From Laetmonice hystrix (taxonomy: Eukaryota): 64,000 nt of DNA. The translations under genes were made by a program, and so were the position numbers. Positions 8,950-64,000 of the stretch are shown one piece after another. Location of the stretch: assembly GCA_965235115.1 (NCBI GenBank), contig OZ249436.1, positions 38,504,001 through 38,568,000 of the forward strand, given 5' to 3'. The notes below the pieces were generated by a model. The model did not search any database. It saw only the letters and a program-made list of their open reading frames with translations, and was not told where the DNA came from. Every line of letters begins with the position of its first letter. Positions within the stretch are counted from its first letter, which is position 1.

Positions 8950-9319
8950 TTACAAAAGTCTGATCAACAACGCGAAGGATGTTTGATATTGTGGAGGGTA
9001 GAAACCCAACTCGCTCAACACCCATGGTGAATTGGTAGTTCCTGTTACCATTAACCGTATAGCCATGGTTGAGGGGTTGTGGGTATACGCCATCCCTGGG
9101 CGCATCATGCATTTATGCCCTCTAGGCCTATAATGCACCGGCCATAACTACAATAACACATACCACAACACAAAGGTTTCTATACTCAGCGGCAACAAGT
9201 ATTGGCCGACAACCGTCACCCGAGTCACCCAAGATCCTGCTTTGTCGAATATGTAGGGAGAAGGTAGCGGGTTTATGGCGTGAATAAATAAAATGGTATG
9301 AATAAATAAGCGCAATTTT

Positions 9320-33200: not shown

Positions 33201-36200
33201 TTAATTAGGCATTAGCCAATCGTCCTTCAACCTGTTGACCATTAAGTTGAATGCACAAATCGAAATGCAATTGACATAAAATGTGTCAAAACAGAATCTG
33301 GCCGCTAACCTGGGATTTGGCAGGTGGCATTTGATTGACAGATGTGACGCCATTCAGACACAGTAGCACCAACCCTGCCTAAGACGTGCGTGACTACGTT
33401 AACTGCCCTGGTCCGGCATTGCAATTTTTGACATACAGTTATAAAAATGGCACTATTTTTTTAGAAGTTTTGACCTATTTATCTGAAATTTGTACCAAGG
33501 CCCCAAATAACCAGATGATATCATATATGCAAAATATTATGACATTGGGATAAAAATTGTGAAAGTTATAATCAAGAAAAGAGTGTTCCAGTTTTTTGGG
33601 CCAACCCGATATACATGAGCATTCATTGTACTAAGCCCAATTTCATCCGTACATTCTCAAAATCAGCCTGCTAGGCCCGGGTATATGCTATTTGATTTAA
33701 ATCTGACTCCAGAGAATGTTTTTACATCAAAGATCATGATCTCGCCTTACAAACACCAAAACTCATGATTTATTTACCCTCACTCATAGGTGTTAGAACT
33801 GCTGATCGAGGTGCTGAAGACGCCATGCCCAGAGGGAAGTAACTCCTTACACATCTACCGAATCTACCGCAGTATCTACAAGGTTCTACACACCTTCGTG
33901 CGAGGACGCAGCCGTAAGAACGCTCTCTACTTGGCCAGGTGTATCCCCTTCTTCCTAACTCAACTCGGACTGGAGGTGAGTTCACGTGTACTCAGTTTAC
34001 TCTCTACTTGGTCAGGTGTATCCCCTTCTTCCTAACACAACTCGGACTGGAGGTGAGTTCACGTGTACTCAGTTTACTCTCTACTTGGTCAGGTGTATCC
34101 CCTTCTTCCTAACACAACTCGGACTGGAGGTGAGTTCACGTGTACTCAGTTTACTCTCTACTTGGTCAGGTGTATCCCCTTCTTCCTAACTCAACTCGGA
34201 CTGGAGGTGAGTTCACGTGTACTCAGTTTACTCTCTACTTGGTCAGGTGTATCCCCTTCTTCCTAACCCAACTCGGACTGGAGGTGAGTTCACGTGTACT
34301 CAGTTTACTCTCTACTTGGCCAGGTGTATCCCCTTCTTCCTAACTCAACTCGGACTGGAGGTGAGTTCAGGTGTACTAAGTTTACTATCTACTTGGCCAG
34401 GTGTATCCCCTTCTTCCTAACTCAACTCGGACTGGAGGTGAGTTCACGTGTACTCAGTTTACTATCTACTTGGTCAGGTGTATCCCCTTCTTCCTAACTC
34501 AACTGGGACTGGAGGTAAGTTCACATGTACTAAGTTTACTCTCTACTTGGCCAGGTGTATCCCCTTCTTCCTAACTCAACTCGGACTGGAGGTGAGTTCA
34601 CGTGCACTCAGTATCATGGATGTGCACACTCTCACTTTAGGCCCGTAATTTCCATCACATTATTGAGGGGGCTATTGAATTATTGAGGGGGTTCGAAGAA
34701 CAGATCCAAGGTTCTTCTTGGTCAAGTAGGATAATTATTAGGCAACACTGAAAATATTGGGGGGGGGGGGGCTTAATGAGAAGATTCTCCGAGAGGTTCC
34801 AGTGCATAAACGCCGTTTATCTTTTTTCTGTCAGCCAGTATAGCAGGCCACAATAACAGCATGCATTGTATTGGCCATGCATGTAACATGCCATCGCTGG
34901 GACTGGGGGAGGAGGGCGCCACCCCAACCCCACCCCCTGCTCCGTTAATGATAGCTGCCGTGATTTAATTTCATACCAGTATTTTACTTCTGAAACACTT
35001 CGGAACACTTCAGCTCCCCTGACACCGGTATTGGAGAAGATCCATCACATAATGTAGGTCGGTAGTTGTCCCCGCCTGTAGCAGATTCCCGGCTGTAACA
35101 GTTTCCGAAGCGCAAACCCTATACAATACTAATTACTCAATCCTAACCTGGCTGCTATTGTTACATTCTGTTGACCATGGTCGGAGATATAAACCAGGAG
35201 ATCTAGTAACATTTGTTTTACACCAGGAGGTCTGGTAACATTTGTTTTACACCAGGAGGTCTGGTAACATTTGTTTTACATCAGGATGTCTACTAACATT
35301 TGTTTTACACCGGGAGGTCTGGTAACATTTGTTTTACACCAGGAGGTCTGGTAACATTTGTTTTACACCAGGAGGTCTGGTAACATTTGTTTTACATCAG
35401 GATGTCTACTAACATTTGTTTTACACCGGGAGGTCTGGTAACATTTGTTTTACATCAGGAGGTTTACACCAGGAGGTCTAGTAACATTTGTTTTACATCA
35501 GGGGATTTACACCAAGAAGTCTGGTAAAATCTGTTTTACACCAGGAAGTCTGGTAACATTTGTTTTACACCAGGAGGTCTGGTAACATTTGTTTTACATC
35601 AGGGGGTTTACACCATGAGGTCTGGTAATATTTGTTTTACACCAGGAGGTCTGGTAACATTTGTTTTACACCAGGACGTCTGGTAACATTTGTTTTACAG
35701 GGCGGAGTCGGGGTTCACTGTTGTAAGATGTTGATAGACCTGATCAAGGACAACCGTCAGATCGTCGACCGCATCACGTCGGAACAGCTCGATATCTTCG
35801 TGGACATGTTGAAGAAACACAAGGTAGGTCCGGAGTATACTGTCTCATCCTCGAGATATGGCTTATTCTGCCTGAAAACAAACCTGCCAAACTACTACAC
35901 CTAAAAATGGGGAAAGCCGACAATATGTACGAAGCTATTAATCTTGTATTTGAATGTATAAAAAGAAAACACAATACACTATGTTCTACCGTAGTCCTAG
36001 ACACCTTCATAAACATAGCGAATGCTTCATAGCAGGCCACGCAGGATTTTATATTGAAACAAGAAAAAAGTGTTAAAAATAAAGAAGAAGAAAAGAAACA
36101 ATGCACCCATTGTTCACTATATAATGACTTCGTAAGCTAGATGTGACAGTCACAGTGATGTTATTGTTGCTGACAGAAATCACAGTTCCTGGATCTGTTG

Positions 36201-45200: not shown

Positions 45201-48200
45201 TCCCTTACAACTCAAGTCAGCTGGATTCGCCACTGCTAAGTAAGTAGACCTAGATCTGCATAAGTATAGCGCTCTGTTAGCTTTCCATCGATTAGCCATA
45301 ATTTTTTAGAGTGTAACTTTCTACAACGAGAATTAACGTTGTTCAACTTTTCCATATTTCGCAATGGGTGCCTCACTCAGAATGGGTGGGTGTAGGGCAC
45401 TAAACGGTACATTGCGCACACACACAAATTTGTGTGTGTGTGCCAAATACAAAAAGTTTTTGTATTTAATACAAAATCTTTTTGTATTTAATACAGAAAC
45501 TTTTTGTGTTAAATACAAAAAGTTTTTGTATCTAATACAAAAAAAAGTTGGCCCCAGAAAATTACTGTAGGCCTACTACGAGAAAGGTATAATATACCCT
45601 TAAAATATTATTTTAAGGGCGTATTTTCACAGATTTATACGTACTTATCATTTTATATAATTTGCATTTTGTCTAACAGATTCAGTGAGTAAAAACTAGA
45701 CCAAGTCAGCAGGTTTGTGGCGCCATCTATATATTTGTATTAGATACCAACAGTTTTTGTATTTATACACAAAGTTTTTGTATTATATACAAAAAGTTTT
45801 TGTATTATATACAAAAAGTTTTTGTATGTATAGACCATAGTAGATTAGTGAGATAGTGCTGTCGCCACGCCGATCAACAGATTGTACCAGTCACTCGTTG
45901 TTGGCTCCCATGCTTAGCCTCAATACCTTTACAGGGATGATGGATTGGACTTAAGACATGCTTATTTACTCAGGGCCACGACCAGACGTATCTCTTGCAC
46001 GATTTGATCCTCCACGATATCCCATTTTATATGTATTATAGACCTACATTATATGAAATCTAAATATATAACACGTCGATCTTAAAATGTATTTCTGTGT
46101 GTGTAATTTTGCGACAAGAAGAATGTGACAAATTAAGATTCTTGCACTATTTAGCATGCTTCGTTTTCCTTTGACTATTATTTTATAAAGGTATTTCGCC
46201 ACAAAAATGGAAGGTTCTGTGCTTTGAAGACAATACATATTAACGTTCGGATTATAATAACCCATTTCAACAAAACTATTCTAATTTTTACACATATTTT
46301 TTTGCAACAAATCCAGCAAACCGATGGTGACAGGAAAACTGGACAAGTTGTTGACCAAGATTCGACGCCGGACTGTGTATTTTGACAGCTCTTTGCCTGA
46401 ACTGTTATACGTGAGTGTACCCTCATCTTCCTCAACATCACGGGTTGTTATACGTGAGTGTACCCTCCTGTTCCTCAACATCCAGGGTTATTATACGTGA
46501 GTGTACCCTCCTGTTCCTCAACATCCAGGGTTATTATACGTGAGTGTACCCTCCTGTTCCTCAACATCCAGGGTTATTATACGTGAGTGTACCCTCCTGA
46601 TCCTCAACATCCAGGGTTGTTAAACGTGAGTGTACCCTCCTGTTCCTCAACATCCAGGGATATTATACGTGAGTGTACCCTCCTGTTCCTGAACATCCAG
46701 GGTTGTTATACGTGAGTGTACCCTCCTGTTCCTCAACATCCAGGGTTGTTATACTTGCGTGCACCCTCGTATTCCTCAACATCCAGGGTTATTATACGTG
46801 GGTGCACCCTCCTGTACGTGAGTGTACCGTCCCGTTCCTCAACATCTAGGGTTGTTATACGTGAGTGTACCCTCCTGTTCCTCAACATCCAGGGTTGTGA
46901 TACGTGAGTGTACCCTCCTGTTCCTCAACATCCAGAGTTGTTATAGGTGAGTGTACCCTCATCTTCCTGAACATCCAGGGATATTATACGTGAGTGTCCC
47001 CTCCTGTTCCTCAACATCCAGGGTTGTTATACGTGAGTGTCCCCTCCTGTTCCTCAACATCCAGGGTTGTTATACTTGAGTGTCCCCTCCTGTTCCTCAA
47101 CATCCAGGGTTGTGATACGTGAGTGTACCCTCCTGTTCCTCAACATCCAGAGTTGTGATACGTGAGTGTACCCTCCTGTTCCTCAACACCCAGAGTTGTT
47201 ATACGTGAGTGTACCCTCCTGTTCCTCAACATCCAGGGTTATTATACGTGAGTGTACCCTCATCTTCCTCAACATCCAGGGATATTATACGTGAGTGTAC
47301 CCTCCTGTTCCTCAACATCCAGGGTTATTATACGTGAGTGTCCCCTCCTGTTCCTCAACATCCAGGGTTATTATACGCGAGTGTACCCTCCTGTTCCTCA
47401 ACATCCAGGGTTATTATACGTAAGTGTACCCTCCTGTTCCTCAACATCCAGGGTTGTTATACGTGAGTGTATACCCTCCTGTTCCTCAACATCCAGGGTT
47501 ATTATACGTGAGTGTACCCTCCTGTTCCTTAACATCCAGGGTTATTATACGTGAGTGTCCCCTCCTGTTCCTCAACATCCAGGGTTATTATACGTGAGTG
47601 TCCCCTCCTGTTCCTCAACATCCAGGGTTATTATACGTGAGTGTCCCCTCCTGTTCCTCAACATCCAGGGTTGTTATACGTGAGTGTACCCTCCTGTTCC
47701 TCAACATCCAGGGTTGTTATACGTGAGTGTACCCTCCTGTTCCTCAACATCCAGGGTTATTATACGTGAGTGTCCCCTCCTGTTCCTCAACATCCAGGGT
47801 TATTATACGTGAGTGTCCCCTCCTGTTCCTCAACATCCAGGGTTATTATACGTGAGTGTACCTTCCTGTTCCTCAACATCCAGGGTTGTTATACGTGAGT
47901 GTACCCTCCTGTTCCTCAACATCCAGGGTTGTTATACATGAGTGCACCCTCCTGTTCCTCAACATCCAGGGTTATTATACGTGAGTGTACCCTCCTGTTC
48001 CTCAACATCCAGGGTTATTATACGTGAGTGTCCCCTCCTGTTCCTCAACATCCAGGGTTGTTATACGTGAGTGTATACCCTCCTGTTCCTCAACATCCAG
48101 GGTTGTTATACGTGAGTGTACCCTCCTGTTACTCAACATCCAGGGTTGTTATACGTGAGTGTATACCCTCCTGTTCCTCAACATCTAGGATTGTTATACG

Positions 48201-51200
48201 TGAGTGTACCCTCCTGTTACTCAACATCCAGGGTTGTTATACGTGAGTGTACCCTCCTGTTACTCAACATCCAGGGTTGTTATACGTGAGTGTATACCCT
48301 CCTGTTACTCAACATCCAGATTTCGACTGGACAGGTTTCGACTGTTCATGGAATCTTCAACAGTAAAGTTAATGTGAGTGTACCCTTCTGTTACTGTGAA
48401 TGCACTGCCAAAACGAATCCTTCTTACAGGACCTGACGAGCTACGAGTCGGACGAGTTGGTCATGAAGTCGCTTACTGTACTCAGTAACTTCTTCTCCTC
48501 CGAGGCCGGCGTCTTCGATATTATTACTCGTTGTCAGGTAACAGTGACTAGTATACTGATATACGATTATATTATATAAATTCTCACATTATTATATAAT
48601 ATCATAATGATTTATGTGATGCAATGTATCAGTATTAGTCTGTGTCTGTTGGGACTATTACTAAGCAGCAAAATCGACGGTCCCCATATATTAGGCCTTT
48701 AATATGATTAATGAAAGAGCTTGTCTACAAACCTGTGTGTTTCTACCCCAGCTGATGACAAGCCCAGAGATGATCGCTTTACACAATCTGACTGAGGCAC
48801 AGATTTCGACTGTTCAGGCCCTCTTCAACAGTAAACTTAACTCGCAGCAAGCCCAGGAAATAGTAGAAACACTGAACGACTTAAACAGGTATGCAAACGA
48901 TAATTTGTCAATTAATTGACCATTTTCGTATTTAGCGCTAACTATTTTATTTCTTTTTATTTCTTTTTTTTCATTATTCAGTTTCGTTAGTTCTTTTATC
49001 TTATTTTTTGTTTTTCTTTCTTGCCTTCTTTCTTTGTTTCCTTCGTTCTGTGTCTGCTTGTCTGTCTGTTTGCCTTTCTTTTCATTGGTTAATTCCTTTT
49101 TTTGCATTTTCTCGCACTTCTTTTTAAGCTTGTACGACAAGGGCGACCACGAAACGACAAACTTTGTGGCACAAAACATTGTTGTCAACAATGGTAAGTT
49201 AAACTTGACCAGACCAGAAAAGGCATTGTTTATTTCCCTTGAATGGACTAGAATTTTGCACTGTTGTGGCAGAGATGATGTGATTATTCCTGCTATAGAC
49301 CCAAAGCTTTCTCTTTGTAGGTGTACTTGATCTCCTCTTCACAATGATACTTCAAGACGTCGACCAATCACTAGAGGTACATTGATCAGATAATTATGAA
49401 TGACTGGGGAGAGTACGTACATGCCGTTGAAATGGTCACTTTTTACTTCAGAAGCGCGCGTCAGAGCTTTCTTGCTCTCGCCTGGTATGAATGTGTGACT
49501 TGTGCTGCCACCTAGCGTTAAGGCTTGAAACTAACCAGTGTGTTGTATTCAAAACGATGACAGCCAAGATCTTGGTCCTTGTTTAATGGGTTCATTTAAA
49601 TAAAACTTTTTATGTGGCTTACCATTTCAGCCAGCTGTCACCAAAAAATATTATTTAAAATAACCGCGCCTCCGCACCACTTTCGAAATTTTCTTCATGC
49701 CAAAAACCGGGATTTTTTTGGGGCCTCATATAGAAGTTCCTAATACTCTACCGCATTCAAAAGCTGATAATTGTATGGGACACAATTACATCATTTTAGC
49801 AGGATGCAATTGGGCAGAGAATTTATTCATTAACTTCTGACATATTAAAACTTTCTGTAACATTGATTCGTATATATTAAGGTTAATGCAACATTTTATC
49901 CCCATGTTTCTGATTTCCTCAATGTGAATAGCACCAGTCAAGTATGGCTCAGGAGATCATCGATACAAGTCTGGAGTTGTTGATGTCGGTGTCTAGCCAG
50001 AACGGTCTGGTGCAGAACTTGATCTTTGAAAACTTGGAGAAGTTCCTCTATGTTCGGAGCTCCGGGACGGTGTGGGCCCTGGTGCTCATCCACGTATGTA
50101 TATTATGGCAGAACTGACACATGGCCCTGAACACTGCATCATGGAGTCTTGTATTCCGTAACTCCTTATTCCATATATTTTATAATAGGCATCATGTGTG
50201 CAACAAATATTATAGAATCTATACCGTCACCTTGGTCTTATCTTCAAACCCACCCAAATATGTGCAAACATGTCTTTTTATTTTTTATTTTTATTTCCAA
50301 GGAGATTAGGCCCTCTACAAATGCTATATATATCCCTAAGTGACATGGCCACTTTAGGGCTTAGGGAGTGAGCAGTCGGAGATAACTCGCCCTGCCTGGC
50401 TACGTGCTCTTTCGTTATTGAAATAACCATATGACCAGTCGCTTACGAGGACGGATTTTCAAATTAGGTGCTCAGTTCTAGAGAATTCGGCTCAGTAACT
50501 GCAGTCTACAGTGATACCAACTAGAAGTATATATCCGACCTAGCCAGAACCCAAGAATCCGGCGACTCCCTGCAGGAAAAATAAGGAGACAGCCAGGGAA
50601 GCCACTCTACACGGTTTAGAGGCTGGGAAGATATTACCACTTTTGGGACAAAATATTCCCGAATAATTAAAACAATTTTTATAGATATAGGAACAGACTT
50701 TAGAGTTAGAAAATATGTTCTTGATGTAGTGGGTGGGAGCTCTCTTTTAAAAATGTACTTCCGGTTGCAGCAGACGAGCCAATCAGAAACTTGTGTTAAC
50801 CGTAAAGAGGCATTTCGGTAGAAAGTAATAAAAACAACTTCCTTTGCTGTTTTGGTGATGTGATCTTTCGTTGAAACTGATTCATAAACAAAGGGCGCAA
50901 GATTGTCGCCATTTCCCGTCAGAAATCAACTTTTCTATACAAGTCCCATTAGACTTGACAGACTTGGTCGCATGCTGTTCTGACCGTGGCCAAGCAGGGA
51001 TGGGAAGGAAGCATGTGTTCTTCCAGGGTTTAGTTTATAGAAGTTCTACGTTTATATGCAAGAAGCCTATCCGTCACCTATGTCTGTTGTCTGTGCGACG
51101 TCAGAAGATTGGGGCGTTGACAAAACCCAGTTTTACTGAAAATTATTTTGGGCCTAAGCTTTTAAGCGTTTAATCATAATCAGAGATTAAAAAATAATAT

Positions 51201-54200
51201 TATTGTCTGCAGTGGGACAGGATTAGAATTGGAAAAGGTGTCCATGGACCCCTCTTATTTAAAGATGGGAGCACCCCCCCCCCCCTTACAATTTTAGAGT
51301 CCTAGAATAACAATCATACGGTATATAAGCCGGTGCCATTGCATTTACGTTAAGAACCAACTACAAAGACAAACACACATCTATAGGCCTAACCTGCATG
51401 AACAACCGTTTGACAGGTGTTCCGTGGAAGTATCGGTCGGTGCCTGAAGGTGCAGCCTCGTCACATCCAACAGATCGTCAGGCAGGCAGGATGGTGCAAA
51501 GAGAAAGCACCAGAAATCGTCGACTTCCTGCGGAACCTCGTCAAGTGCAACAGTGTCATCATCAAGAGAAACCAGCAACTGGTACTGCGCAATCTCATGA
51601 ACCAGTTCAAGTCGGCCGGTTACGTCATGGACCTCACTGCCAACCAAAGGTGATTGACGTGTCCCACTTAACCCGAGAAACACCTAGTAGAAACCACTGC
51701 CGTTCTGCCGCCAATTAACCGGTCCCTCAGGCTGTTCAGAATTCGTACAGAAATCAATAGATCTTAGCTGTGATTAACTGAACTTCCGTTTTCTGCCTGC
51801 CCTCACACAGGTATGACATCCTGAAGGGGTTTAGGGGACCTGCACATTGTCGTTATCTGATCGCCCTGGTTGACCTTCTAGCGACCTGTGCTGAGGTGCG
51901 TATATTCCTTTTAACACCAGACTTTCATATGAGTTCAGGGACTTTATTATGGCAATATCATGGATTCTGATGTCGCAAAATTTTCCGTTATTTAACAAAT
52001 ATATCAACAAACACTTACAATGAAATACAGATACAATACGTACGTGTTACCTCACACGGACCGAAAATTGTGATCAATAAAGCAAACTTCAACTGAATTC
52101 CGCCTAGCCTAGGGTCAACTATATCTCTGTACAGTTAGAATCAGACAGAACCAGTTTGTGACAGGAAAATATCCCGCCAAAGCCTTACATAACAAAACAT
52201 CCGGCCCTGGTAATCTCAGCATTGATTAACTCTCATTTCACAGGGCCATATGCGCTACTCGGAATCCATCTGTCAGTCACTGATGACGCTCGAGGAACTG
52301 TTTAAGATTCTGAACAGTTCCGAGATACCGATTGAACACAAGGGACCCTTCGCTCGCTACATCGTGTGGGGATACCTGCGTACAGGGCGTACTGCAACGG
52401 AAGATGGCGTAGATCAACTCGCTCATAACAGGTGACGTCAGCAATTCTCTCGGTCCCTGTCGTCATGCTGAGCCTCAGAGGCAACTTTACGACTTTATCC
52501 AATAAACAGGCTGGTCAGCCGCCAACCAAAATTTGACGTTGTATAAGTTGTATGGATGGCCATAGAAGTAGACGAATATTGGAATATATACTGTAATATA
52601 ATATTTATATGTGTTCCTACTTTAGATTTATGATTAAATGTTTACATTATGTGTGCTGGAGCCAACCACACCCACGCTTTTTTAGAATAGATCGGATTCA
52701 GGAATTTTGGAAAGGGGAGGGGGGAGCGCCATCTTTTCGGCCTTCAGTGACATAAAACATGTCAGTAAAACACATGTTCAGGTAATTTCACAGGAATAAA
52801 GAGGGGGCGCCGCATGCCACTGCTTGCCACCATTTTGCGGAAAGTATATGCATTTATTTCGGGGATTGAAAAAAAAATATCGTCTTTGCTAGGGGTTATT
52901 GTTGATGAATGAGACTAATGACATAAATTAAGTTAGTGCTTACTGTTTTCAGGGACATCTGGCGACATTTAAGAAACATACGGCGGTACATGACGCCCTC
53001 GATCGTCAATACTCTCAAGTCTTGGCAGCAGACAGAGGGCAAACGTCTGCGGTAAGACTTCAACTCAACGTCATCAACTGTTGATTCCCATAAACAAACT
53101 ATTCTGCCGTGAAATGACAAAAGGAAGCAAGTCCAAAAGTTCAAGTTTCGAGACATGGACATAAACAAAGTTGTCTGTACAGTGCAGTTGGATTGACATG
53201 CTTACTTCTGTCATGCGACTGATAGCTTCATAGAAGGATGTTTAGCAGAAATACACCCATCGATAGATAGGGCTTAAACTTCCCTGAATCCAAATTTACA
53301 CTTAAATCGATTTTGGACTTGCTTCCTTTTGTCATTTCACGGTAGTATTGTGAAACGTTTGTAAAACCTTGTTGTTCGCTGGATTAATTCTATCCTAAGT
53401 GTCCGAAAGTCTGACTATAGGAAGAGGAGATTTTGTTCAACAAATCTTGTTGCCCATAATGCCTGATGTCCTTGACATCTCAGATACCGTCGAGACACCG
53501 TCTTCACAGTTCTCGATGTCGAAGGTCACTCCGCCGTCAGGTACGCCCTACAAGGCGGATTCTTACTCGTCCAGGTAAGGGCAGTGTTCACGTGGATGGT
53601 TTATTCTTGGTTACAACTACCGGTCTTCCTGTAAGTTGAATAGATTTGATTAACTATTATTGTATGTCTTCCTGCAGACATTTGTCAGCAAGTTTTATGA
53701 GCCGGATCCGGATCTATTTCCGGCGGAGGGGCAAATCCTGCTGCAGCTGACCAAGTTAATATTGGTAGGTCCAGTGACATGAAATCAGTTTATTAAACAA
53801 GTACAATGGTGTATAGGCCTATTGGGACCAACCATACCCGTGCATTTTTAACAATGGGTCCGCCGGCTTAGTGCATACCACGCTTCCAGGTTAATTTAAA
53901 ACCAATAGAGCTCCAACTTGCAATGCAAAGAATATTAAAGTTGGCTTGCCTTTTCCCAAAAGTATATGAAGGAGGAGGGTTAAGTGAAGCTTTTATATCA
54001 AAAGATTAATTTTTTTTACGTTTTTTAATTATTATTTTCAGCCGTTTGCACAGGCTTGCTTGGGGTTTGCCTCGGAAGTTGGCGAGGTTCGGATTATTGA
54101 CGAAACCGTCACAGCACTTCTGAAGAAACAGGGCAAGACGTCGAAGGTGTGCAACCCGATACTCGCCTGCATGTCTGGCACAATGATCTGATGATCTAAT

Positions 54201-57200
54201 TTAACTTTTAACCTCACATGTATAACACACTTGCTTACACTTTCAAACCAAGGTGCAGAGCGTTTAGTAAATTTCCTGATTTTGAGTGAGAATCTGAATT
54301 TTGGTGAGAAATATAACTCTGTGTTTCGTTATGTACTATACTCCCTACAGCTTTGTGACGACCTCCGTGAGCAAGGCGAGGTGACGAAGAAACTAGTGCA
54401 GATGGGGGAAGCCATCAAGGTGATTGTCTTCCAGTCTGGCTGTCAGATAGTCTTCCAGGCTGGCTGTCAGATTGTCTTCCAGTCTGGCTGTCAGATTGTC
54501 TTCCAGTCTGACTGGCAGATTGTCTTCCAGTCTGGCTGTCAGATTGTCTTCCAGTCTGGCTGTCAGATTGTCTTCCAGTCTGGCTGTCAGATTGTCTTCC
54601 AGTCGGGCTGTCAGATTGTCTTCCAGTCTGGCTGTCAGATTGTCTTCCAGTCTGGCTGTCAGATTGTCTTCCAGTCTGGCTGTCAGATTGTCTTCCAGTC
54701 TGGCTGTCAGATTGTCTTCCAGTCTGGCTGTCAGATTGTCTTCCAGTCTGGCTGTCAGATTGTCTCCCAGTCTGGCTGTCAGATTGTCTTCCAGTCGGGC
54801 TGTCAGAGCTGGTAAAGTGAAAGGGGGAGTCAGCAAATCCTGAATTCGTGAGCTCGAAATCGAGTTTTACAGTTGTCGTTTCGAGACTTATCGTGTACCT
54901 AAGTTTCAACTTCCAATACCCAACACAGATCTGCAATGAACTCTTTTATTCCATTGACTTTCAGAAAAAGGGAGACAAGGATCTAGAGGAGGAGGACCTA
55001 AACGAACGATTCCAGCTCTATGGGAATAACATCAGGTCCTACCTTAACGACCAGAAAACGGTAGCATCTGTACTGGGTATTTCAAGTCGCCGCGCGAAAC
55101 ACATGAGTAAGACGCAACGTGATTCATTTGCATTACTATTATTCTATTTTTATTCTCCCCCATTTATATTTTTATACTATTTACTTACTTAGTATATAAC
55201 AATGTTGTTAGGCTACTCTAGTATGTATCCCAGTGTCCATAGAGAGGAATGGATCCTGTCTCATTCACTGTCGCATTGCATTCACAATGTTGACTAGAAC
55301 AGCTACACGCCTGGGTGTTCGGGTTACTGTTTGATTTTTGTTTAGATCCATGTTTAAACCAATAAAGTAAGGCTTGCAACTGTTTCCTAAGATATGGGTC
55401 AGTCAGCATCTCTAAACATATGCCTTTATTTATCTTTAATTCTTTCCATAACTACATGTAGTCACAGTTTCTTCTTCACGTTTTGTTCCTCTCGCATTTA
55501 CTACTGTTTCTTTGTCCGGCTTTTGACGAACACCACTACCTTCCCCGCTACATGTTTGTGATGTCCCTGATTGTTTTCAGGTCTTAACTTACAAATTTTA
55601 CTATCTCAATTGGTAATATCTCGAGCTACTCCATAATTCACAATACTTGCAGACTATGTGAAGCCAGATGAAGAAGCCAAGCTCCCTCTAGAACCGGTAT
55701 TCCAACAACACGTGAAATGTTTCGTGACGTCACACAAGAACCTAGGCGAACGCTACAAGAGGGCACTGAAGCTAATCGACCAACTTGAGTAGGCGGTTCA
55801 CTGAATCATTCATTGTACTGTTGTACTGACCATCGTATCCTAGCCTGCTAAATCAAAATCAGAATCAGATCAGTCATTCGAAGTATTACGGTGTCCATTT
55901 CTCCTTACTAGACTAACTTGTGTGGGCTATAAATACTCTTCTCTATTCTTTCAGTCATTTTTCAAGAGTATGCCTATTTACATAATTTATTTATAGTCAC
56001 ATTTTCTTTAACATTATATCAATCTTGTAAATCTCCTATAAATCAGTTGTGAATACAGTGACTACAGGCCAACATCAGGGGGCTTTGCAATAACAAAGTG
56101 ACCCTGTAATTGTGAATGTTTTTTCGGCCTCCCCCCCTGGAAGATATCGGAAGTGGGGTTGCCCCCCACTCTGAATATATTCTCGCTCTTATATAAGGTG
56201 AATACAAGCTGGTTTTCTTTGATTTAAAAAAATCATATATTTATACATGCCACGTTTTTCCAGTCCTATTTGTGTAACTTGGCAATTCTGGTTTTTGTGT
56301 GTAGGATATCAAGCAGACTATACAAGCAGACAGCGGAACCGGAACAGGAGAAAGTCGACATCCGGTCACTCCAGATTCTGCGTGCTCTAATCTACAACCA
56401 GGTTGTTCAACTTCCTGATGACTGGACTGACAATTCTGGCAAGCATACAAAGTGGGTATTAAAAACTATATCCGTCATGAAAATAAATCTCAAGATGAAA
56501 ACCTTTTCGTTGATGCGATATAGATATTTGAAGGCACAATGGAAACCACAGTTATCAGCAACATTATTTCAATCAGCTTCGATCTTTTCTTGGAGAAGAA
56601 GAGAGAACAAGCAGTTCCTATGATATAGCTCCCTATAGACTCGGTTGAGAGAAATGGGATATAGGCCTATTCTAATTTCATAGTCCTCTAAGACAAAGGG
56701 CAATGCGACATATACAGGCAGTGAGGTGCCATTATCAGTAGGTTTCATGTAGGCCTATATAGACAGTATACTGGTAGGCCTACATTTAACCCGATCTCTC
56801 ACTAGGTTATAACGAACAGTTTAAGTGACAGTTTCACCTCGGATAGTCATAATAACTCGGATAATAGCTCGGATAATAGACAGTCGTCCCCTAATAGGAA
56901 CCTGCCAATAGGCAAGTTTGTTTAGTGCCTAAGTCTGAATTGAGTGTTTGAATTCTACATCCAGTTAGTCGTATAGCGGTACCCTACACCCTGCAAGTGT
57001 GCAGCACTGACAATCAGACATTTAACATCGTAATTGAATGATCAGACTTTCTTTGTGACTGAGGCTTGTCTTTCCAGTAGCAGTAATCTAATAGAGCAAT
57101 GACAGAATGAGCCATAATAAAAGGATTCCAGATCACGGCGTGCATGTACTTGTTTCTGCAGGACCCTGAAGGTGGTAAAGAGCATCCAGGACACGTACTG

Positions 57201-60200
57201 TGATTACAACGTCATCCGGAAGGTAATGCCCCTCTTGTCTCGGGAGAACCAGGTCCTCAAGCGGGAAGTCCTGGCCCTCATGGATATGATGTTGTTCAAC
57301 GCCAACACCAACATCCAGGTACCCATAGAATCTCAAGTACAACACCACTTACTATGCCTCAGGGAGCTGGACAGTAGGAACATCTCAAAACTTTAACCTC
57401 ACAGGGATACGATTACAGAAAAAAAGAATGCAGGTTTTATATTTGAATATCTCTATAAGAACCAGAGGGTAAAATTAATATAGGAAATATTTCCCCATCT
57501 TTCTGCGTCCTTGCCAGGCTTTAAAAACGAATGCAATGAATTAATAAAAAATACCTCTCTGTATATCCGGAAAGGTCGAAGGGAGTTTCGAGTGATTGTG
57601 CATAATCATATGTAGCAACGACTTTTCATCATATTTTAATACGTAATTTTATTCTATCTGTACCAGAGGTCGCTACTGCAGTATTTTAGCGGCACAAGTG
57701 AGGAGATGTTCTTCATGTATGTTCGTCAACGCCTTCATTCAGCAACGCTGGCGCTCAAAGAAAAGTAACTAAAAACGTCATTTCTCATTACGGCTCCCCT
57801 TAGGAACCAAGCCTAGTGCTTGTTCAGGCACTAGGCTTGAACAAAACTCCTAAGCTTCTAAGAAAATGGAATCATTTGAACATCCTCAGTGCTGTCTTCA
57901 AAATGTTGAAATATCTCCCGTTTGAAGGGACATGACTTGTATATAGAAGTCTTTTGCCATGAAGGTACCACGAGACGTCTACCAACGTCTGTACTCATTG
58001 GAATACATTTATCAATATGCAAAGATTTACTTCAAACCTCGGGTACATACATATGGTATCCGATGTATAATAGACCCAAACCAGATATATAGGATCATGA
58101 GTAATCAAAAGAACGCATCAAATCCTACCTCGTGAATCCCATGCCAACTCGGCGTCACGTGATTCTAGGGTATCTGTTTTACCAGGCGGTCCATGGAAAA
58201 TCAACGAAAGCAAAGGCAGAAATGGAAAGAGATGAAAGAGGCACACCTTAAGGAACAGGCGGCTAGGCTGCAAGAAGCCAAGGTTCTTCACCACTGTTAT
58301 CAATATGAAAATCTTGATTTTCAAAATAATAGTATTATCGTTATTTCAAATAACATGATATCATCCTTTACATAAAAACGTCGTAATATATTTATCCTCC
58401 TTTGTTATAATTCATAGTTAACTGTAGCTTTGCTAATTACTATCACTTCACTTTTATCTTAATTTTTCTCATTAGTGTATATTTTGAAAGAGTAATAAAA
58501 TGCTGATGGCGCTATTTTCTTCTAGGAACATGAAGAAGCGGCCAAAGTTCAAGTGAAGGTTACAAACAGGAAGCTTAAACGTATCCAGCCATACCTGAAG
58601 TTCCTGGCTAACCAAAGGATGGTGCGTAACATCACGAATGAAACCATCGAGGCTGAGGTAAGACTCTTCTTGATTCTGTCATACAGAAAGTTATTCAATC
58701 AAACAGGGACAGGCAGGTCGCATGAATTGGATTTCAGCGTTTCAAACTTCAGCTGTGGAAGAAAATTACTTTATCCACATCCAGCTAACCGAATATGAGA
58801 GTAACAAAGAAATCAATCAATAAAAATTATTACAAGTGGGCTAATCCTCTTGATGTCTGACGTTGAGCAGTATTCGGACAACTTGGCATTAATCGATGAA
58901 GAGATTGGCGTAGATCAAAGCACTGACAACCCGGAAGAGGATATTGGGCTCATCTTCAGGGTCATAGCGGGCCTCTGCGACGGACAAAACCGAGACTTAC
59001 AGGTTGACATCTAAAGACATCACTCTTGTCCTTGTGGCGAAATCATCAAGTTCTTTATGATCCTACTTCCCTTTTAAATACAGAATAACAATGAAAAGTG
59101 TCTAAGGAATATAACTTACAAGGAACGATCTAGACATATCTATCGTCCACCAGTTAATATGAGAATAATATTGATTGATTTTTTTATTAAAATGGTTGAG
59201 GGGATGTTCCCTGAAACTCCATAAGGGAGAGCGTCACTTTGACCCATGGCCTAGCTCGGCGCCTGACGTATAATACTGAGGCGTATATATGTTTTATGCG
59301 GACGCAGGACTACCTTCGAGAGCAGCCAGACAACGTTCGAACTGTGAACCTAGTGAGTGAGCTGTGTCAGTTCCTGGCCGCCCACTACTCGGCCGTCGAT
59401 GCTGAGTCCATCAGTCTCATCTCACTGATCTTTCGGACACTCAATGAGATATGTCAGGTAAAACTTCTACAGGGCCCGGTCTTTCGAAATTGCTTAAGCT
59501 TCAGGCTTCTGATTGGCTGGTCTGCTTAGACCAGCCATTCAAAAGCGTTAAGCTAAAGCAAGACCCAAGAGTATCATGCGTTGCACCTGTCTTGTCCATG
59601 GGCGTCGCTAGGATTATTTCCAGGGGGGTGAGCACACAACCTGATATTGAGGGTGGAGCCGTGGGCGGCGAAACCATCCACCGCGAGCGCCAAAGGCGCA
59701 ATTTTAACACATTTGTGACGTGCCATATCAAAACCAGGCAGAATTCGCATGTGTGAAGTTCTAAGCTAGGGGGAGGGGTCAAAAGGTCAAAATGGCCGAT
59801 TTTGGTGATTTTGAGATTTTTCCAGAAATCAAAAGCCAAACATGTCATGTTTCACATTAGAAAGTATAATTGTCGAAAACCCGGTCTATGTTGATAAAAA
59901 ATGGATTATTTGGGCTTGTTTCACATGACTAATTTTGATGCTGAAAAAAATCAACATTCAGGATCAAAGCTGTTTTTTAGCATTTTTTTTCCAAAATCAG
60001 CAACTCATAAACTGTCACACTCAAAGTTCGATATCTTCAGATATATTTGACACATCACATTCATTGTGGTGTCATTTTGAAGCTTGTGACCTGTACGTTT
60101 TGATTATTCAATAAAACACACATCGATTTTTGCCGACTTCTGCCTGGTTTTGGCATGGCCCCTCACATTTGATTTTCCCCATATTTTAAAGGGGGCATGT

Positions 60201-63200: not shown

Positions 63201-63493
63201 AGAGATCTATTAGGCGGAGTTAGCAACACCAATAAAACAGAAAGAGATTCTGATGAATTAGCCCATTTAATCTAACAATCATAATTGCGCAAGGCAGATT
63301 TGGATAGCAATTGACGTTTAAGCATGATGACTATTGAGAACTGTGAAAACTATTGTTTCAGGGCGATATGGAACTACGCTTGTATCCTGATCAGCTTGAT
63401 CATCCAAATCATCATGCTGTTGACATGGCAGTCGCCTCTGGTCGTCGACCAAGTGCCGTCAAACGCCACCCATCTCCCGATTGAGTTGTACAG
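16424..63493 (+). CDS. ITPR: Divergent inositol 1,4,5-trisphosphate receptor-like Ca2+-release channel, 59 exons traced, 3'-incomplete (runs off window after TM1)
   Basis: Spliced translation shows IP3R-family motifs in the expected order: MLHIGDFICLY (cf. FLHIGDICSLY), QNRYK, LKYGDIIQLRH, VVQLFHRDLEAYL, VRLRHMTTRLYL, NRQKLLRNL, RKNALYLA, IKDNRQIV, FLDLLSVLC, LVDLLATCAEG, LCDGQNRDLQDYLREQ, TLNEICQGN, SVEVV, then a hydrophobic TM1. All 58 internal introns are GT-AG with matching phases. Confidence 0.93.
17206..17453. mobile_element. MITE (CAGGGCCGGATCCA TIR, TSD AGTGTG)
   Basis: TIRs plus 6-bp direct flanks. Confidence 0.8.
18019..18092 (+). CDS. ITPR: ITPR-like exon 2
   Basis: STNEWLYVHNGQDRDKPERISNVE; phases 2/1. 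Confidence 0.8.
18163..18222. repeat. (GA)n microsatellite
   Basis: Direct observation. Confidence 0.95.
18276..18400 (+). CDS. ITPR: ITPR-like exon 3
   Basis: AVTFQISTQNRYKLTKKYRKLL...NAK. Confidence 0.85.
18649..18735 (+). CDS. ITPR: ITPR-like exon 4
   Basis: ASSLAEQQDNRKEQKRLEGKNLKYGDIIQ. Confidence 0.9.
18851..18928 (+). CDS. ITPR: ITPR-like exon 5
   Basis: LRHVLNNRYINVSVTDTSAVDKDKLK. Confidence 0.9.
18916..20460 (+). repeat. ~65-75-bp minisatellite (~23 copies) filling ITPR-like intron 5
   Basis: Unit AGACAAACTCAAGGGTAGTAGGTCCCTATATGTCAGTGAATCTGCCCATGTCAAACCTTTCCAATAG; starts in the last bases of exon 5. Confidence 0.95.
20502..20582 (+). CDS. ITPR: ITPR-like exon 6
   Basis: VHLSFYGTKNAQFKILPSYKVKVEGEQ. 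Confidence 0.9.
20814..20911 (+). CDS. ITPR: ITPR-like exon 7
   Basis: IENLDQVVFESIKSPGSYLHTSDPYQVSPGIY. Confidence 0.85.
21069..21165 (+). CDS. ITPR: ITPR-like exon 8
   Basis: SEVNLATTQARFTIVQHRTQDPNDPFINRYLW. Confidence 0.85.
21395..21482 (+). CDS. ITPR: ITPR-like exon 9 (MIR)
   Basis: ASSVVQLFHRDLEAYLVAEGVFGDVPMED. Confidence 0.9.
22429..22638. mobile_element. MITE (AAGCCCCAGTCACAC TIR)
   Basis: Inverted termini AAGCCCCAGTCACAC / GTGTGACTGGGGCTT. Confidence 0.7.
23150..24290. repeat. 74/77-bp minisatellite (~15 copies) in intron 9
   Basis: Unit TTGGCCTGTCATTACTTCTCCTTGCCTGGTAAATCCACCAACCAGAGTAAAACTCTGCCAGCCAGCAACACCAC. Confidence 0.95.
24915..25022 (+). CDS. ITPR: ITPR-like exon 10 (MIR)
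   Basis: VHLRVREQNHADTRTLYPPRSGITFWQVESERSLVD; phase 1/1. Confidence 0.9.
25035..27704. mobile_element. Composite nested DNA-transposon remnants (ACGAT-rich long inverted repeats)
   Basis: 25040-25140 is an imperfect inverted copy of ~27560-27670; inner TIR pair AAGGCCCTTATCCA at ~25559 and ~27538; CAAGATGGCCGCC tandem block at ~25790-26230. Confidence 0.6.
27776..28519. mobile_element. MITE with ~80-bp imperfect TIRs
   Basis: AAACCAGTGA...AGAGCAAGACCAGCCTTCATAT.GGAGCCCTATA mirrored at ~28444-28519. Confidence 0.75.
28841..28986 (+). CDS. ITPR: ITPR-like exon 11 (MIR)
   Basis: GMPIRWKQKVRLRHMTTRLYLSV...VFRLHSIVQ. Confidence 0.9.
28963..29346 (+). repeat. 32-bp minisatellite (~12 copies) spanning the exon 11 donor
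   Basis: Unit TTCAGGTTGCACTCCATCGTACAG|GTTAGACA. Confidence 0.95.
30026..30110 (+). CDS. ITPR: ITPR-like exon 12
   Basis: YVDRDEILLGNHARVEHPLTETWLHAER. Confidence 0.9.
30721..30806 (+). CDS. ITPR: ITPR-like exon 13
   Basis: DTYARLRLTSSEGTSMASLQWDKADLTQ. Confidence 0.85.
31059..31333. mobile_element. Palindromic MITE (TACGGAGCCCTGTTGGGGACATGA TIR, TSD TGAAAC)
   Basis: Perfect 24-bp TIR and 6-bp direct flanks. Confidence 0.85.
31491..31616 (+). CDS. ITPR: ITPR-like exon 14
   Basis: ISWIKRRPYPDALTIQKVD...FVAGMIPFIRDIIPQ. Confidence 0.85.
31802..31852 (+). CDS. ITPR: ITPR-like exon 15
   Basis: ITNTRKVTTKKAMAICT; good acceptor and donor, phase 0/0. Confidence 0.75.
32087..32332. mobile_element. 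MITE (TTACTTTTCCACCGTGAGCAAGG TIR)
   Basis: Inverted termini. Confidence 0.75.
32449..32529 (+). CDS. ITPR: ITPR-like exon 16
   Basis: ALGELDDFLIVNGKPEKNRQKLLRNLN (IP3-binding RQKLxR motif). Confidence 0.9.
32820..33610. mobile_element. Tc1/mariner-like non-autonomous element
   Basis: TA|CAGGGTGTCCGAAAAAA left end; degenerate TTTTTTGGGCCAACCCG right end. Confidence 0.5.
33790..33975 (+). CDS. ITPR: ITPR-like exon 17
   Basis: VLELLIEVLKTP...GRSRKNALYLARCIPFFLTQLGLE. Confidence 0.9.
33923..34612 (+). repeat. 77-bp minisatellite (~9 copies) spanning the exon 17 donor
   Basis: Unit ...CTACTTGG(C/T)CAGGTGTATCCCCTTCTTCCTAACTCAACTCGGACTGGAG|GTGAGTTCACGTGTACTCAGTTTA... Confidence 0.95.
35193..35700 (+). 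repeat. 29-bp minisatellite (~17 copies) ending at the exon 18 acceptor
   Basis: Unit GAGGTCTGGTAACATTTGTTTTACACCAG; the last copy ends TTTGTTTTACAG|GGC. Confidence 0.93.
35701..35823 (+). CDS. ITPR: ITPR-like exon 18
   Basis: GGVGVHCCKMLIDLIKDNRQIVDRITSEQLDIFVDMLKKHK. Confidence 0.9.
36177..36281 (+). CDS. ITPR: ITPR-like exon 19
   Basis: KSQFLDLLSVLCVCNRTALPDNQLRIATALLGQDQ. Confidence 0.9.
36505..36618 (+). CDS. ITPR: ITPR-like exon 20
   Basis: EVLFHIEIKTYESLAVGDELCISTDGRRTWLPLHKFAY. Confidence 0.85.
36630..36797. repeat. Degenerate (CT/CTGT)n microsatellite
   Basis: Direct observation. Confidence 0.85.
37143..37220 (+). CDS. ITPR: ITPR-like exon 21
   Basis: KNYSDYSEELFIFLEHQLELYRNLSY. 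Confidence 0.85.
37517..37649 (+). CDS. ITPR: ITPR-like exon 22
   Basis: RRNEKVLKVM...LPGSLRANLLGVLT. Confidence 0.85.
37846..38904. mobile_element. Non-autonomous element (CCC(A/T)GATAA TIR, AT flanks) with TTGGGCCAACG subrepeats
   Basis: Termini CCCTGATAA / TTATCTGGG; many internal GTTGGGCCAAC motifs; possibly CMC/EnSpm type. Confidence 0.65.
38092..38464. mobile_element. PIF/Harbinger-type MITE nested in the previous element
   Basis: Perfect TIR GGCCCCGTTTCATAACTAA; 3-bp TSD CAG; uninterrupted host motif visible at ~37951-37990. Confidence 0.88.
39101..39210 (+). CDS. ITPR: ITPR-like exon 23
   Basis: FYIDYGRECCTVRTTPFNYVYHDIDSRKENYGRLDL. Confidence 0.8.
39478..39586. repeat. (CT)n microsatellite
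   Basis: Direct observation. Confidence 0.95.
39985..40101 (+). CDS. ITPR: ITPR-like exon 24
   Basis: IESDIDEKYPGLREWLLTVLDETPFMIAQPVSNSIFIQQ. Confidence 0.8.
40379..40514 (+). CDS. ITPR: ITPR-like exon 25
   Basis: VLRLVECLINYGHLSAEEDLQRLLPLITRLADGRHDAPFP. Confidence 0.85.
40991..41099 (+). CDS. ITPR: ITPR-like exon 26
   Basis: ITEYTSFEKHH...RFKKNESQEAIVKAKI. Confidence 0.85.
41378..41432 (+). CDS. ITPR: ITPR-like exon 27
   Basis: ALNVVELLLKRTFNRRLQ. Confidence 0.85.
41651..41772 (+). CDS. ITPR: ITPR-like exon 28
   Basis: FVLSVFKHTMEKE...YELMRREFEHRDF. Confidence 0.75.
42824..43114. mobile_element. TTAA-target MITE (Kolobok-like AG..CT ends)
   Basis: TTAA|AGTGACACCCCAAATTCCT ... AGGAATTTAGGGTGGCACT|TTAA. 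Confidence 0.75.
43173..44090. mobile_element. CACTA/EnSpm-like non-autonomous element
   Basis: CACTGTAAA / TTTACAGTG termini, TA flanks, many TACAG/CTGTA subterminal motifs. Confidence 0.75.
44655..45235. mobile_element. MITE (CAGGGGCGGATTCAG TIR, TSD CTAAG)
   Basis: TIRs plus exact 5-bp TSD; internal GACAAAAGTGG repeats. Confidence 0.8.
46317..46410 (+). CDS. ITPR: ITPR-like exon 29
   Basis: KPMVTGKLDKLLTKIRRRTVYFDSSLPELLY; donor GTGAGT. Confidence 0.8.
46403..48319 (+). repeat. 43-bp minisatellite (~44 copies) spanning the exon 29 donor
   Basis: Unit GTGAGTGTACCCTCCTGTTCCTCAACATCCAG GGTT(G/A)TTATAC. Confidence 0.97.
48430..48537 (+). CDS. ITPR: ITPR-like exon 30
   Basis: DLTSYESDELVMKSLTVLSNFFSSEAGVFDIITRCQ. 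Confidence 0.85.
48752..48888 (+). CDS. ITPR: ITPR-like exon 31
   Basis: LMTSPEMIALHNLTEAQISTVQALFNSKLN...LNDLN. Confidence 0.85.
49129..49193 (+). CDS. ITPR: ITPR-like exon 32
   Basis: LYDKGDHETTNFVAQNIVVNN. Confidence 0.8.
49321..49376 (+). CDS. ITPR: ITPR-like exon 33
   Basis: GVLDLLFTMILQDVDQSLE. Confidence 0.8.
49932..50093 (+). CDS. ITPR: ITPR-like exon 34
   Basis: HQSSMAQEIIDTSLELL...SQNGLVQNLIFENLEKFL...VLIH. Confidence 0.85.
51417..51649 (+). CDS. ITPR: ITPR-like exon 35
   Basis: VFRGSIGRCLKVQPRHIQQIV...VIIKRNQQLVLRNLM. Confidence 0.9.
51811..51895 (+). CDS. ITPR: ITPR-like exon 36
   Basis: YDILKGFRGPAHCRYLIALVDLLATCAE. Confidence 0.9.
52244..52431 (+). CDS. ITPR: ITPR-like exon 37
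   Basis: GHMRYSESICQSLMTLEELFKIL...HKGPFARYIVWGYL. Confidence 0.9.
52953..53051 (+). CDS. ITPR: ITPR-like exon 38
   Basis: DIWRHLRNIRRYMTPSIVNTLKSWQQTEGKRL. Confidence 0.8.
53101..53349. mobile_element. MITE with ~35-bp TIR
   Basis: CCGTGAAATGACAAAAGGAAGCAAGTCCAAAA / TTTTGGACTTGCTTCCTTTTGTCATTTCACGG. Confidence 0.8.
53484..53574 (+). CDS. ITPR: ITPR-like exon 39
   Basis: YRRDTVFTVLDVEGHSAVRYALQGGFLLVQ. Confidence 0.8.
53678..53764 (+). CDS. ITPR: ITPR-like exon 40
   Basis: TFVSKFYEPDPDLFPAEGQILLQLTKLIL. Confidence 0.8.
54042..54146 (+). CDS. ITPR: ITPR-like exon 41
   Basis: PFAQACLGFASEVGEVRIIDETVTALLKKQGKTSK. Confidence 0.75.
54351..54419 (+). CDS. ITPR: ITPR-like exon 42
   Basis: LCDDLREQGEVTKKLVQMGEAIK. 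Confidence 0.75.
54423..54806 (+). repeat. 24-bp minisatellite (16 copies) starting just after the exon 42 donor
   Basis: Unit ATTGTCTTCCAGTCTGGCTGTCAG. Confidence 0.97.
54965..55106 (+). CDS. ITPR: ITPR-like exon 43
   Basis: KKGDKDLEEEDLNERFQLYGNNIRSYL...KHM. Confidence 0.8.
55653..55788 (+). CDS. ITPR: ITPR-like exon 44
   Basis: YVKPDEEAKLPLEPVFQQHVKCFV...KLIDQL. Confidence 0.85.
56305..56451 (+). CDS. ITPR: ITPR-like exon 45
   Basis: ISSRLYKQ...DIRSLQILRALIYNQVVQLPDDW. Confidence 0.85.
57162..57318 (+). CDS. ITPR: ITPR-like exon 46
   Basis: TLKVVKSIQDTY...REVLALMDMMLFNANTNIQ. Confidence 0.9.
57667..57764 (+). CDS. ITPR: ITPR-like exon 47
   Basis: RSLLQYFSGTSEEMFFMYVRQRLHSATLALKE. Confidence 0.9.
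58186..58282 (+). CDS. ITPR: ITPR-like exon 48
   Basis: RSMENQRKQRQKWKEMKEAHLKEQAARLQEAK. Confidence 0.75.
58526..58657 (+). CDS. ITPR: ITPR-like exon 49
   Basis: EHEEAAKVQVKVTNRKLKRIQPYL...TIEAE. Confidence 0.75.
58871..59002 (+). CDS. ITPR: ITPR-like exon 50 (RIH-associated)
   Basis: ...DIGLIFRVIAGLCDGQNRDLQ. Confidence 0.9.
59308..59457 (+). CDS. ITPR: ITPR-like exon 51 (RIH-associated)
   Basis: DYLREQPDNVRTVNLVSELCQFL...TLNEICQ. Confidence 0.92.
59597..60234. mobile_element. hAT-like non-autonomous element (8-bp TSD GTCTTGTC)
   Basis: CATGGGCGTCGC / GCGACGCCCCTG termini with exact 8-bp TSD. Confidence 0.8.
60405..60506 (+). CDS. ITPR: ITPR-like exon 52
   Basis: GNQPNRTVLVNNKIVDYINFLLRIGHFDGCSAEQ. 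Confidence 0.9.
60672..60755 (+). CDS. ITPR: ITPR-like exon 53
   Basis: VIELRSMIATLLRSLTEENCPEAEILTK. Confidence 0.88.
61055..61123 (+). CDS. ITPR: ITPR-like exon 54
   Basis: ELRDTLDLEAIFSIMSASRALYQ. Confidence 0.82.
61232..61309 (+). CDS. ITPR: ITPR-like exon 55
   Basis: DQQASAEHLILGYEQPPPSGMFCFQK; phase 0/0, could be optional. Confidence 0.65.
61424..61526 (+). CDS. ITPR: ITPR-like exon 56
   Basis: GESKQIRDSANEVGLTLYLVIARMRDTDQSVEKQ. Confidence 0.85.
61764..61879 (+). CDS. ITPR: ITPR-like exon 57
   Basis: LVDPGVKKGYLFYKHQCYSVEVVKGNHLQRAHFPVRHK. Confidence 0.9.
61955..62928. repeat. 93-bp minisatellite (~10 copies) with 279-bp higher-order period in intron 57
   Basis: Unit AAAGCCTATGACATTATACAAATGTACACTTTTCTAAAAACG...CTCGCCATG; variant GAGCGAG/TAATAAAGG in every third copy. 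Confidence 0.95.
62967..63136 (+). CDS. ITPR: ITPR-like exon 58
   Basis: DLLREELIMQVKWHIDRSSPSGKLRDLVLWARDIIHDVGYQKKI. Confidence 0.9.
63362..63493 (+). CDS. ITPR: ITPR-like exon 59 (first transmembrane helix)
   Basis: AIWNYACILISLIIQIIMLLTWQSP...IELY; donor GTAGGT. Confidence 0.88.
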
Positions 63494-64000
63494 GTAGGTG
63501 TAGACCAAAGGCTTATAGCGTGTTCTTCAGATCGAGTTGTACAGGTAGGTGTAGACCATAAGCTTATCATGTTCTTCAGATCGAGTTGTACAGGTAGGTG
63601 TAGACCATAAGCTTATCGTATGTTCTTCAGATCGAGTTGTACAGGTAGGTGTAGACCATAAGCTTATAGCGTGTTCTTCAGATCGAGTTGTACAGGTAGG
63701 TGTAGACCATAAGCTTATCGCATGTTCTTCAGATCGAGTTGTACACGTAGGTGTAGACCATAAGCTTATCATGTTCTTCAGATCGAGTTGTACAGGTAGG
63801 TGTAGACCATAAGCTTATCGTATGTTCTTCAGATCGAGTTGTACAGGTAGGTGTAGACCATAAGCTTATAGCGTGTTCTTCAGATCGAGTTGTACAGGTA
63901 GGTGTAGACCATAAGCTTATCATGTTCTTCAGATCGAGTTGTACAGGTAGGTGTAGACCATAAGCTTATCGTATGTTCTTCAGATCGAGTTGTACAGGTA
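63480..64000 (+). repeat. 49-51-bp minisatellite (>=10 copies) spanning the exon 59 donor
   Basis: Unit ATCGAGTTGTACAG|GTAGGTGTAGACCATAAGCTTATC(GT)ATGTTCTTCAG. Confidence 0.95.

Follow-up and report, generated by a model that had tools for sequence, protein, structure and literature searches.

The window, the whole 64-kb stretch of DNA analysed here, comes from a genome of 627 Mb and covers the greater part of a multi-exon gene, which is encoded on the + strand. In the product of this gene a Pfam search recovers RIH (E 8e-5) and RIH-associated (E 2e-10) domains, and our model as a whole is similar over long stretches to mollusc proteins named IP3 receptor and to a Branchiostoma protein; for one such IP3-receptor-named homolog the best match among solved structures is ITPR1-3. 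These domains and this whole-model similarity are what the gene has in common with the ITPR family, from which it differs as a divergent member, being 24-35% identical to the long homologs found (from molluscs, Branchiostoma and Macrostomum). Judged by its sequence, the gene at 16433-63493 is a divergent IP3-receptor-like member of that family, with putative orthology, and it is predicted to group apart from the close vertebrate-like ITPRs. The model is a rough one (47 exons over 28.8-63.5 kb, 1734 residues, one residual stop), so its intron lengths are approximate. With tblastn, about 10 further exons appear upstream of the modelled 47, which is consistent with the exon numbering (29 to 31) of the original prediction. 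Searched singly, exons 29 and 31 matched no Pfam family, exon 30 matched none of the solved structures, and the exon at 51417-51647 had no homolog among proteins of 136-2000 aa. On a 50-aa exon, the nearest hits came to 60% at most. The features that concern us lie between exons 29 and 31:

46317..46410, + strand: exon 29 (gene model, homolog alignment); the array was seeded by its donor and last 8 nt
46338..46349, + strand: possible second template in exon 29, an 11/12 match to insert positions 48326-48337, noted post hoc
46403..48319, + strand: 43-bp "mirage" minisatellite, ~44 units (TRF, unit list, site counts, genome matches)
48320..48373, + strand: 54-nt insert (pseudo-exon), probably templated, an exon 31 copy with a 15-nt CAG-to-CAG duplication (sequence, self-search, both haplotypes)
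48374..48429, + strand: terminal partial unit (22 nt), degenerate unit start and real exon 30 acceptor; the would-be 56-nt intron (sequence)
48430..48537, + strand: exon 30; a spliced contig covers exactly 48430-48537; acceptor 9.3 bits, leave-one-out
48752-48888, + strand: exon 31 (gene model); contains the insert template
48800..48841, + strand: probable insert template inside exon 31 (36/42 match, E 3.7e-6)

Tandem arrays of the host gene

The intron between exons 29 and 30 (46411-48429, 2019 nt, phase 0) is nearly filled by the 43-bp array. Each unit consists of the end of exon 29 (8 nt), the donor with the first 22 nt of the intron, and a filler of 13 nt whose end is formed by CAG and three further bases; from unit to unit the likeness is 92-94%. 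Along the array there are 43 acceptor-like CAG sites and 40 GTRAGT donors, of which the first is the genuine donor; in each unit the CAG lies 11 nt before the donor, and closed pseudo-exons result. The 11-nt "micro-exon" slot of the original prediction is indeed present; it consists of a duplicate of the 8 nt that close exon 29, plus 3 nt of filler. The donor behind the insert had been regarded as donated by the minisatellite, and here the relation has to be turned round: the repeat itself copies the exon 29 donor. All 36 genome matches to a 30-nt unit pattern (≤2 mismatches) fall inside the exon 29/30 intron and nowhere else, and because of this the repeat did not import splice sites from outside; it is a locus-specific copy of the gene's own exon-29 end and donor. 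The terminal partial unit shares a TGTTACT variant with four units, at 48126, 48214, 48257 and 48302.

Some further details of the array may be recorded. One of its units (46798-46817) is cut down to 20 nt, apparently because the stretch between two TG(TT) words was deleted; the terminal partial unit, at 48374, may have arisen in a similar way, and little of the original intron may remain. At a distance of 9 kb, the exon ending at 57318 closes with CAACATCCAG followed by G (57309-57319), the same 11 nt as in the filler of the 43-bp unit, a match that may be either chance or the filler's template. As for a fold-back origin of the 13-nt filler, its 9-pair hairpin is no better than those of shuffles (z -0.8), and the insert region (z +0.8) and its source (z -0.35) likewise fold no better than shuffles, so we have given no weight to hairpins.

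Spanning its own exon-intron boundary and being private to its locus, the 43-bp array belongs, as its sequence indicates, to the class of mirages. Those described in amphioxus genes (Adh3, troponin C, the globins BflGb6 and BflGb9, PGBD5) leave regular splicing undisturbed (PMC3087553, PMC3902484); as those papers describe them, they too repeat an exon-intron boundary in tandem, are locus-private, carry AG/GT signals in their units and can be several per gene. The array here differs from them by a filler of 13 nt in the unit, which the terminal copy lacks, and by holding at one end a 54-nt copy of another exon; the passages concerned describe no insert of this kind. A second parallel is offered by the human donor-spanning VNTRs of F7 intron 7, CBS intron 13, 6-16, lamin B2 and PDGF (PMC1557585). 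Their first unit spans the exon/intron boundary, as it does here, and according to the same source their downstream identical donors are mostly silent, the most upstream one being chosen, as in the 37-bp repeat of F7 intron 7. Repeat donors are not always silent, however, because the 6-16 and CBS repeats use the two most proximal pseudo-donors (PMC1557585). In contrast to these VNTRs, the units here also have a CAG that closes the pseudo-exons, and the last slot is occupied by foreign exon DNA.

The 43-bp array is not the only one at a splice site of the host gene; there are others, with units of 32, 77, 29, 24, 51 and 67 bp:

18916-20448: 67-bp-unit array, spans a donor
28963-29346: 32-bp-unit array, spans or abuts a splice site
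33923-34612: 77-bp-unit array, spans or abuts a splice site
35193-35699: 29-bp-unit array, spans or abuts a splice site
54422-54807: 24-bp-unit array, spans or abuts a splice site
63479-64000: 51-bp-unit array, spans or abuts a splice site

Of the 8 long arrays found over 28.8-64 kb, 6 have an end that lies ≤25 nt from an exon boundary, the chance being 0.094 for each (p = 2e-5); the 25-nt limit was chosen after the correction of one boundary, and a 20-nt limit likewise gives 6/8. The host gene is unusually mirage-rich.

In the 77-bp array (33923-34612) the unit reproduces the end of an exon together with its weak donor, CAG/GTGTAT; each unit has inside it a second donor, GAG/GTGAGT, that looks stronger. 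High-copy dispersed elements lie at 49500-49750, 50800-51000 and 53098-53351 (contig depth from thousands to 150,000, summed), the last of them with 41-bp terminal inverted repeats and MITE-like, and more intronic inverted-repeat elements are found at 8412-8953, 27745-28550 and 31059-31333.

The 54-nt insert and its source

At the downstream edge of the array, between a CAG and a GTGAGT, sits the insert. The 54 nt at 48320-48373 are preceded by ...CAACATCCAG and followed by GTGAGTGTACCCT, and they are stop-free in phase 0 with the very peptide that the original prediction gave. Other parts of that prediction hold as well: the host intron is phase 0, in keeping with the phase 0/0 assigned to the insert, and the downstream intron would measure 56 nt (48374-48429). 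The likeness to exon 31 is borne out by an ungapped match of 48331-48372 to 48799-48840 at 36 of 42 positions (E = 3.7e-6 in a self-search of the 64-kb stretch with long repeats masked); its score is 54, and 30 shuffled queries run over both strands of the stretch reach 21-31. The source, which had been put at ~480 bp downstream, lies 480 nt away, and the insert is 14% diverged from it. Two details have to be corrected. Where the first ~13 nt had been read as duplicated, the real period is 15 nt, from CAG to CAG (48800 and 48815 in the source, 48317 and 48332 in the insert). Where the peptide changes had been called mostly conservative, 5 of the 7 differences from the source (counted by hand from the codon table) change the residue, with 79% expected at random, and hence show no sign of selection. 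The last 6 nt of the insert fit the repeat's GTTATAC and the source equally, with two changes either way, and they may represent the return to the repeat's GTTATAC.

The original prediction had left room for a truer source elsewhere in the genome; none better was found by DNA, pattern or protein search. At ≤2 mismatches the 27-nt core of the insert occurs once only in its own genome, and a DNA search of that genome with the 671-nt region returned only this locus, although such a search skips common words and hence is no proof. A paralogous gene as donor was rejected, exon 31 having matched only itself in a protein search of the same genome, with no paralog at E≤1. The exon 29 match of 11/12 was reached in 2 of 200 shuffles of that exon, a comparison made post hoc. 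As originally proposed, the insert would be a local templated copy of exon 31 filling the slot of the unit's last 11 nt, and this templated origin is well supported by the 36/42 match and by the want of a better source.

Because it adjoins the end of a repeat of 1.9 kb, a setting in which assemblies fail, the insert might be suspected of being an assembly or read artefact. Independent short DNA contigs of the runs X1 and X3 nevertheless cross it on the other haplotype, which is continuous over 48295-48577 through the insert and has 4 differences of its own there, and an artefact is thus virtually inconceivable; because this second haplotype carries it, the insert is real and predates the divergence of the two. 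The four runs represent one sample, which is probably the source of the assembly because many of its contigs match the 64-kb stretch exactly. Between the haplotypes, 4 of the 54 insert bases differ, with three residue replacements (G>E, G>C, I>L); in exons 30-31 the count is 3 of 245, and all three are silent. The contrast in density is significant (Fisher p = 0.022), whereas that in residue-changing differences (3/4 against 0/3, p = 0.14) is not so alone, with such small numbers. Both splice dinucleotides of the insert are unchanged in the other-haplotype contig that covers them. Small as the numbers are, the insert varies without sign of constraint.

At 48312-48331, the CTGGA of the insert in the assembled haplotype is the reverse complement of the repeat's TCCAG, and the other haplotype reads as an inversion of the two-base loop of the source; either allele could be the older. 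In the introns, haplotype differences are dense at 48642-48942 and 49398-49424, with clusters of 3-7 substitutions and small indels, and suggest that the animal is highly heterozygous.

Splicing across the insert

With AG/GT flanks, an open reading and the frame kept, the insert has the outward features of the possible de novo cassette exon that the original prediction made of it. Evidence on its use comes from run X4, which is spliced: its record 29 joins four exons at modelled boundaries. This is one run from one sample, with no RNA label on its record and recognised as spliced from its contigs alone; it is kept as contigs, at ~15x, with rare forms dropped, and gaps in its cover elsewhere in the gene are left out of the argument. 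Over exon 30 there is a single spliced contig, record 25 (344 nt, depth 14.6). It covers 48430-48537 and extends upstream by another 222 letters (orientation per record 29), with no letters on 48284-48429, so that the insert is absent from it. It uses the acceptor at 48430, and its mapped stretch excludes the array and exon 29; the 222 upstream letters we infer to be exon 29. The depth of X4 is 0 at 48330, 48350, 48352, 48353 and 48415, and the first bin has a mean depth of 4.15, exactly the value of 14.6 x 58/204; with inclusion, 8.0 would be expected. Since X4 was mapped at 85% likeness, either insert allele would be caught; a 65-nt exon was caught in this run, and joints with 21-letter sides were caught in the DNA runs. 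X4 has the assembled-haplotype letters at 48474, 48501 and 48793. In view of record 25, the zero depth over the insert and the bin mean, the main transcript of X4 enters 48430 from outside the mapped stretch and skips the insert, as far as this one run goes.

The splice sites of the insert are inside the range of real ones, and weak. Scored with matrices from the gene's own sites (43 acceptors and 43 donors, with 4 + 4 mis-snapped ones omitted), its acceptor reaches 3.1 bits, as low as 5 of the 43 real acceptors and a score attained by 17% of intronic AGs, and its donor 4.1 bits, as low as 3 of the 43 real donors and attained by 12% of intronic GTs; the two lie in the lowest 12% and 7% of real sites, respectively. 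The would-be 56-nt intron falls below all 46 modelled introns and is about half the shortest of them (103 nt). Finally, the exon 29/30 junction is ungapped in 6/6 aligned homologs from 4 independent clusters (23-28% identical at the junction; of 7 tried, P0139 could not be aligned), and an addition of 18 residues would therefore interrupt a conserved block.

Given a spliced contig without the insert, weak sites, a 56-nt intron, ungapped homologs and haplotype variation without constraint, the reading of the insert as an exon is not supported; minor inclusion may yet occur among the rare forms that contigs drop. We regard it as improbable that the insert serves, at a low rate or in particular tissues, as a young cassette exon by which 18 residues are added with the frame kept. 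Such an exon could point to its AG/GT ends, open frame and phase 0/0, to the lack of a stop and hence of a trigger for decay, to its occurrence in the two haplotypes, its splice dinucleotides being both unchanged in the covering contig, and to the invisibility of rare isoforms in contigs. Against it, besides its absence from the spliced contig, its weak sites and the 56-nt intron, there are 42 near-identical upstream acceptors that compete for the same donor, and 3 of its residues differ between the haplotypes.

Origin and meaning of the insert

It seems highly likely that we are dealing with an old scar of DNA repair or replication, a microhomology-primed templated insertion that formed a silent pseudo-exon. 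The end of exon 29 and its donor were amplified into the locus-specific 43-bp array, whose last unit has beside it a copy of exon-31 DNA starting at a shared CAG; a 3' end ending in CAG would have primed at the CAG at 48800-48802, 480 nt downstream. About 16 nt would be copied, followed by release, re-priming one CAG back and the copying of some 30 nt more, and the return to the repeat would take place at a shared TTA, as in templated insertions of the polymerase-theta or MMBIR type. The two sides of the 5' junction share CAG exactly; for TTA to be shared at the 3' one, two later changes must be assumed. In the source another CAG follows at 15 nt, a period that recurs unaltered in the insert. 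Behind its second CAG the insert has a G, as the source has behind its own second CAG, which fits the copying of 16 nt before a re-priming one CAG back. An alternative to CAG re-priming would be a detour through exon 29 (46338-46349), giving a three-piece patchwork.

The exon-like ends of the insert may be a by-product of this mechanism, because CAG priming would set AG before the copy and the return to the repeat would set GTGAGT behind it; on the other routes considered below, too, such ends would come with the mechanism. A stop-free reading would be expected by default, since coding DNA would have been copied in its own frame, and the source frame and a length that is a multiple of three would each come with a 1-in-3 chance; only these two chances would therefore separate the product from a frame-breaking insert. 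The spliceosome would pair the foremost donor, at 46411, with the strong acceptor of exon 30 (48430), so that array and insert would leave as one 2019-nt intron and the insert would drift without constraint.

Often, templated insertions are built as patchworks by iterated priming with minimal pairing, the signature described for polymerase-theta end joining (PMC12426944), and MMBIR-type insertions exist as germline variants (PMC8421209). The insert resembles both, as these sources characterise them, in the copying of nearby DNA, the 3-nt shared ends, the re-priming, the short-tract patchwork and the germline setting. It differs in its template, 480 nt away, and in its tract of more than 25 nt, both of which exceed the usual polymerase-theta insertion size (<25 bp) given in PMC12426944; it is also old, with substitutions gathered, and the enzyme is not nameable from the sequence.

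The same silent outcome could be reached by a tandem duplication of ~480 nt, from the end of exon 29 to the middle of exon 31, and then a CAG-to-CAG deletion that spared the exon-31 tail of the first copy. The 3' junction, with exon 31 sequence followed by the GTTA..GTGAGT boundary copy, is just the leftover to be expected from this, and boundary tandem duplication is common in the host gene (6/8 long arrays). It needs two events, however, and a third for the 15-nt duplication, and a masked self-search, in which most of the array was masked, found no remnant of exon 30 or intron 30; we consider this path rather unlikely. Perhaps instead the order was reversed: the insert-bearing copy would be the founding duplication, from which the 43-bp unit arose by internal deletion and then expanded 5'-ward. 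This would accord with the escape of array edges from homogenisation mentioned in PMC3087553, with the confinement of the TGTTACT variant to the 3' end and with an insert 14% from its source beside units that are 92-94% alike; moreover, the possible exon-29 template (11/12, 2/200 shuffles, post hoc) would be less than ~100 nt from the break if the array was still short. Yet the deletion would leave a product that lacks one G of the unit, and repeat-like sequence flanks the insert on both sides, as if it had landed in an existing array, and we doubt a reversed order to much the same degree as the duplication with deletion.

On our preferred account of a silent, templated pseudo-exon, the locus brings together two phenomena already known, a minisatellite that copies a boundary and, at the edge of it, a templated insertion. 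In narrow searches by titles and abstract openings of open papers, we found no exon-derived insert inside a boundary-spanning minisatellite. The birth of exons and introns from mirages has been proposed as a hypothetical model (PMC3087553). Boundary-copying arrays offer ready AG...GT slots, and repair would here have put an in-frame piece of a neighbouring exon into one of them; that this piece is included in some tissue is very improbable. If this were true, the locus would be exon birth caught in the act in a calcium-release channel gene, by mirage slot plus templated insertion and with neither a transposon nor a whole-exon duplication, and it would be a direct case of the model put forward in PMC3087553.

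Repair scars can mimic exons, CAG priming and a donor-bearing repeat making AG/GT ends automatically, and this calls for caution in the annotation of genes in repeat-rich invertebrate genomes. At the same time, the density of arrays in the host gene, with six of the eight long ones at exon boundaries, makes this genome well suited to a test of the mirage birth model.
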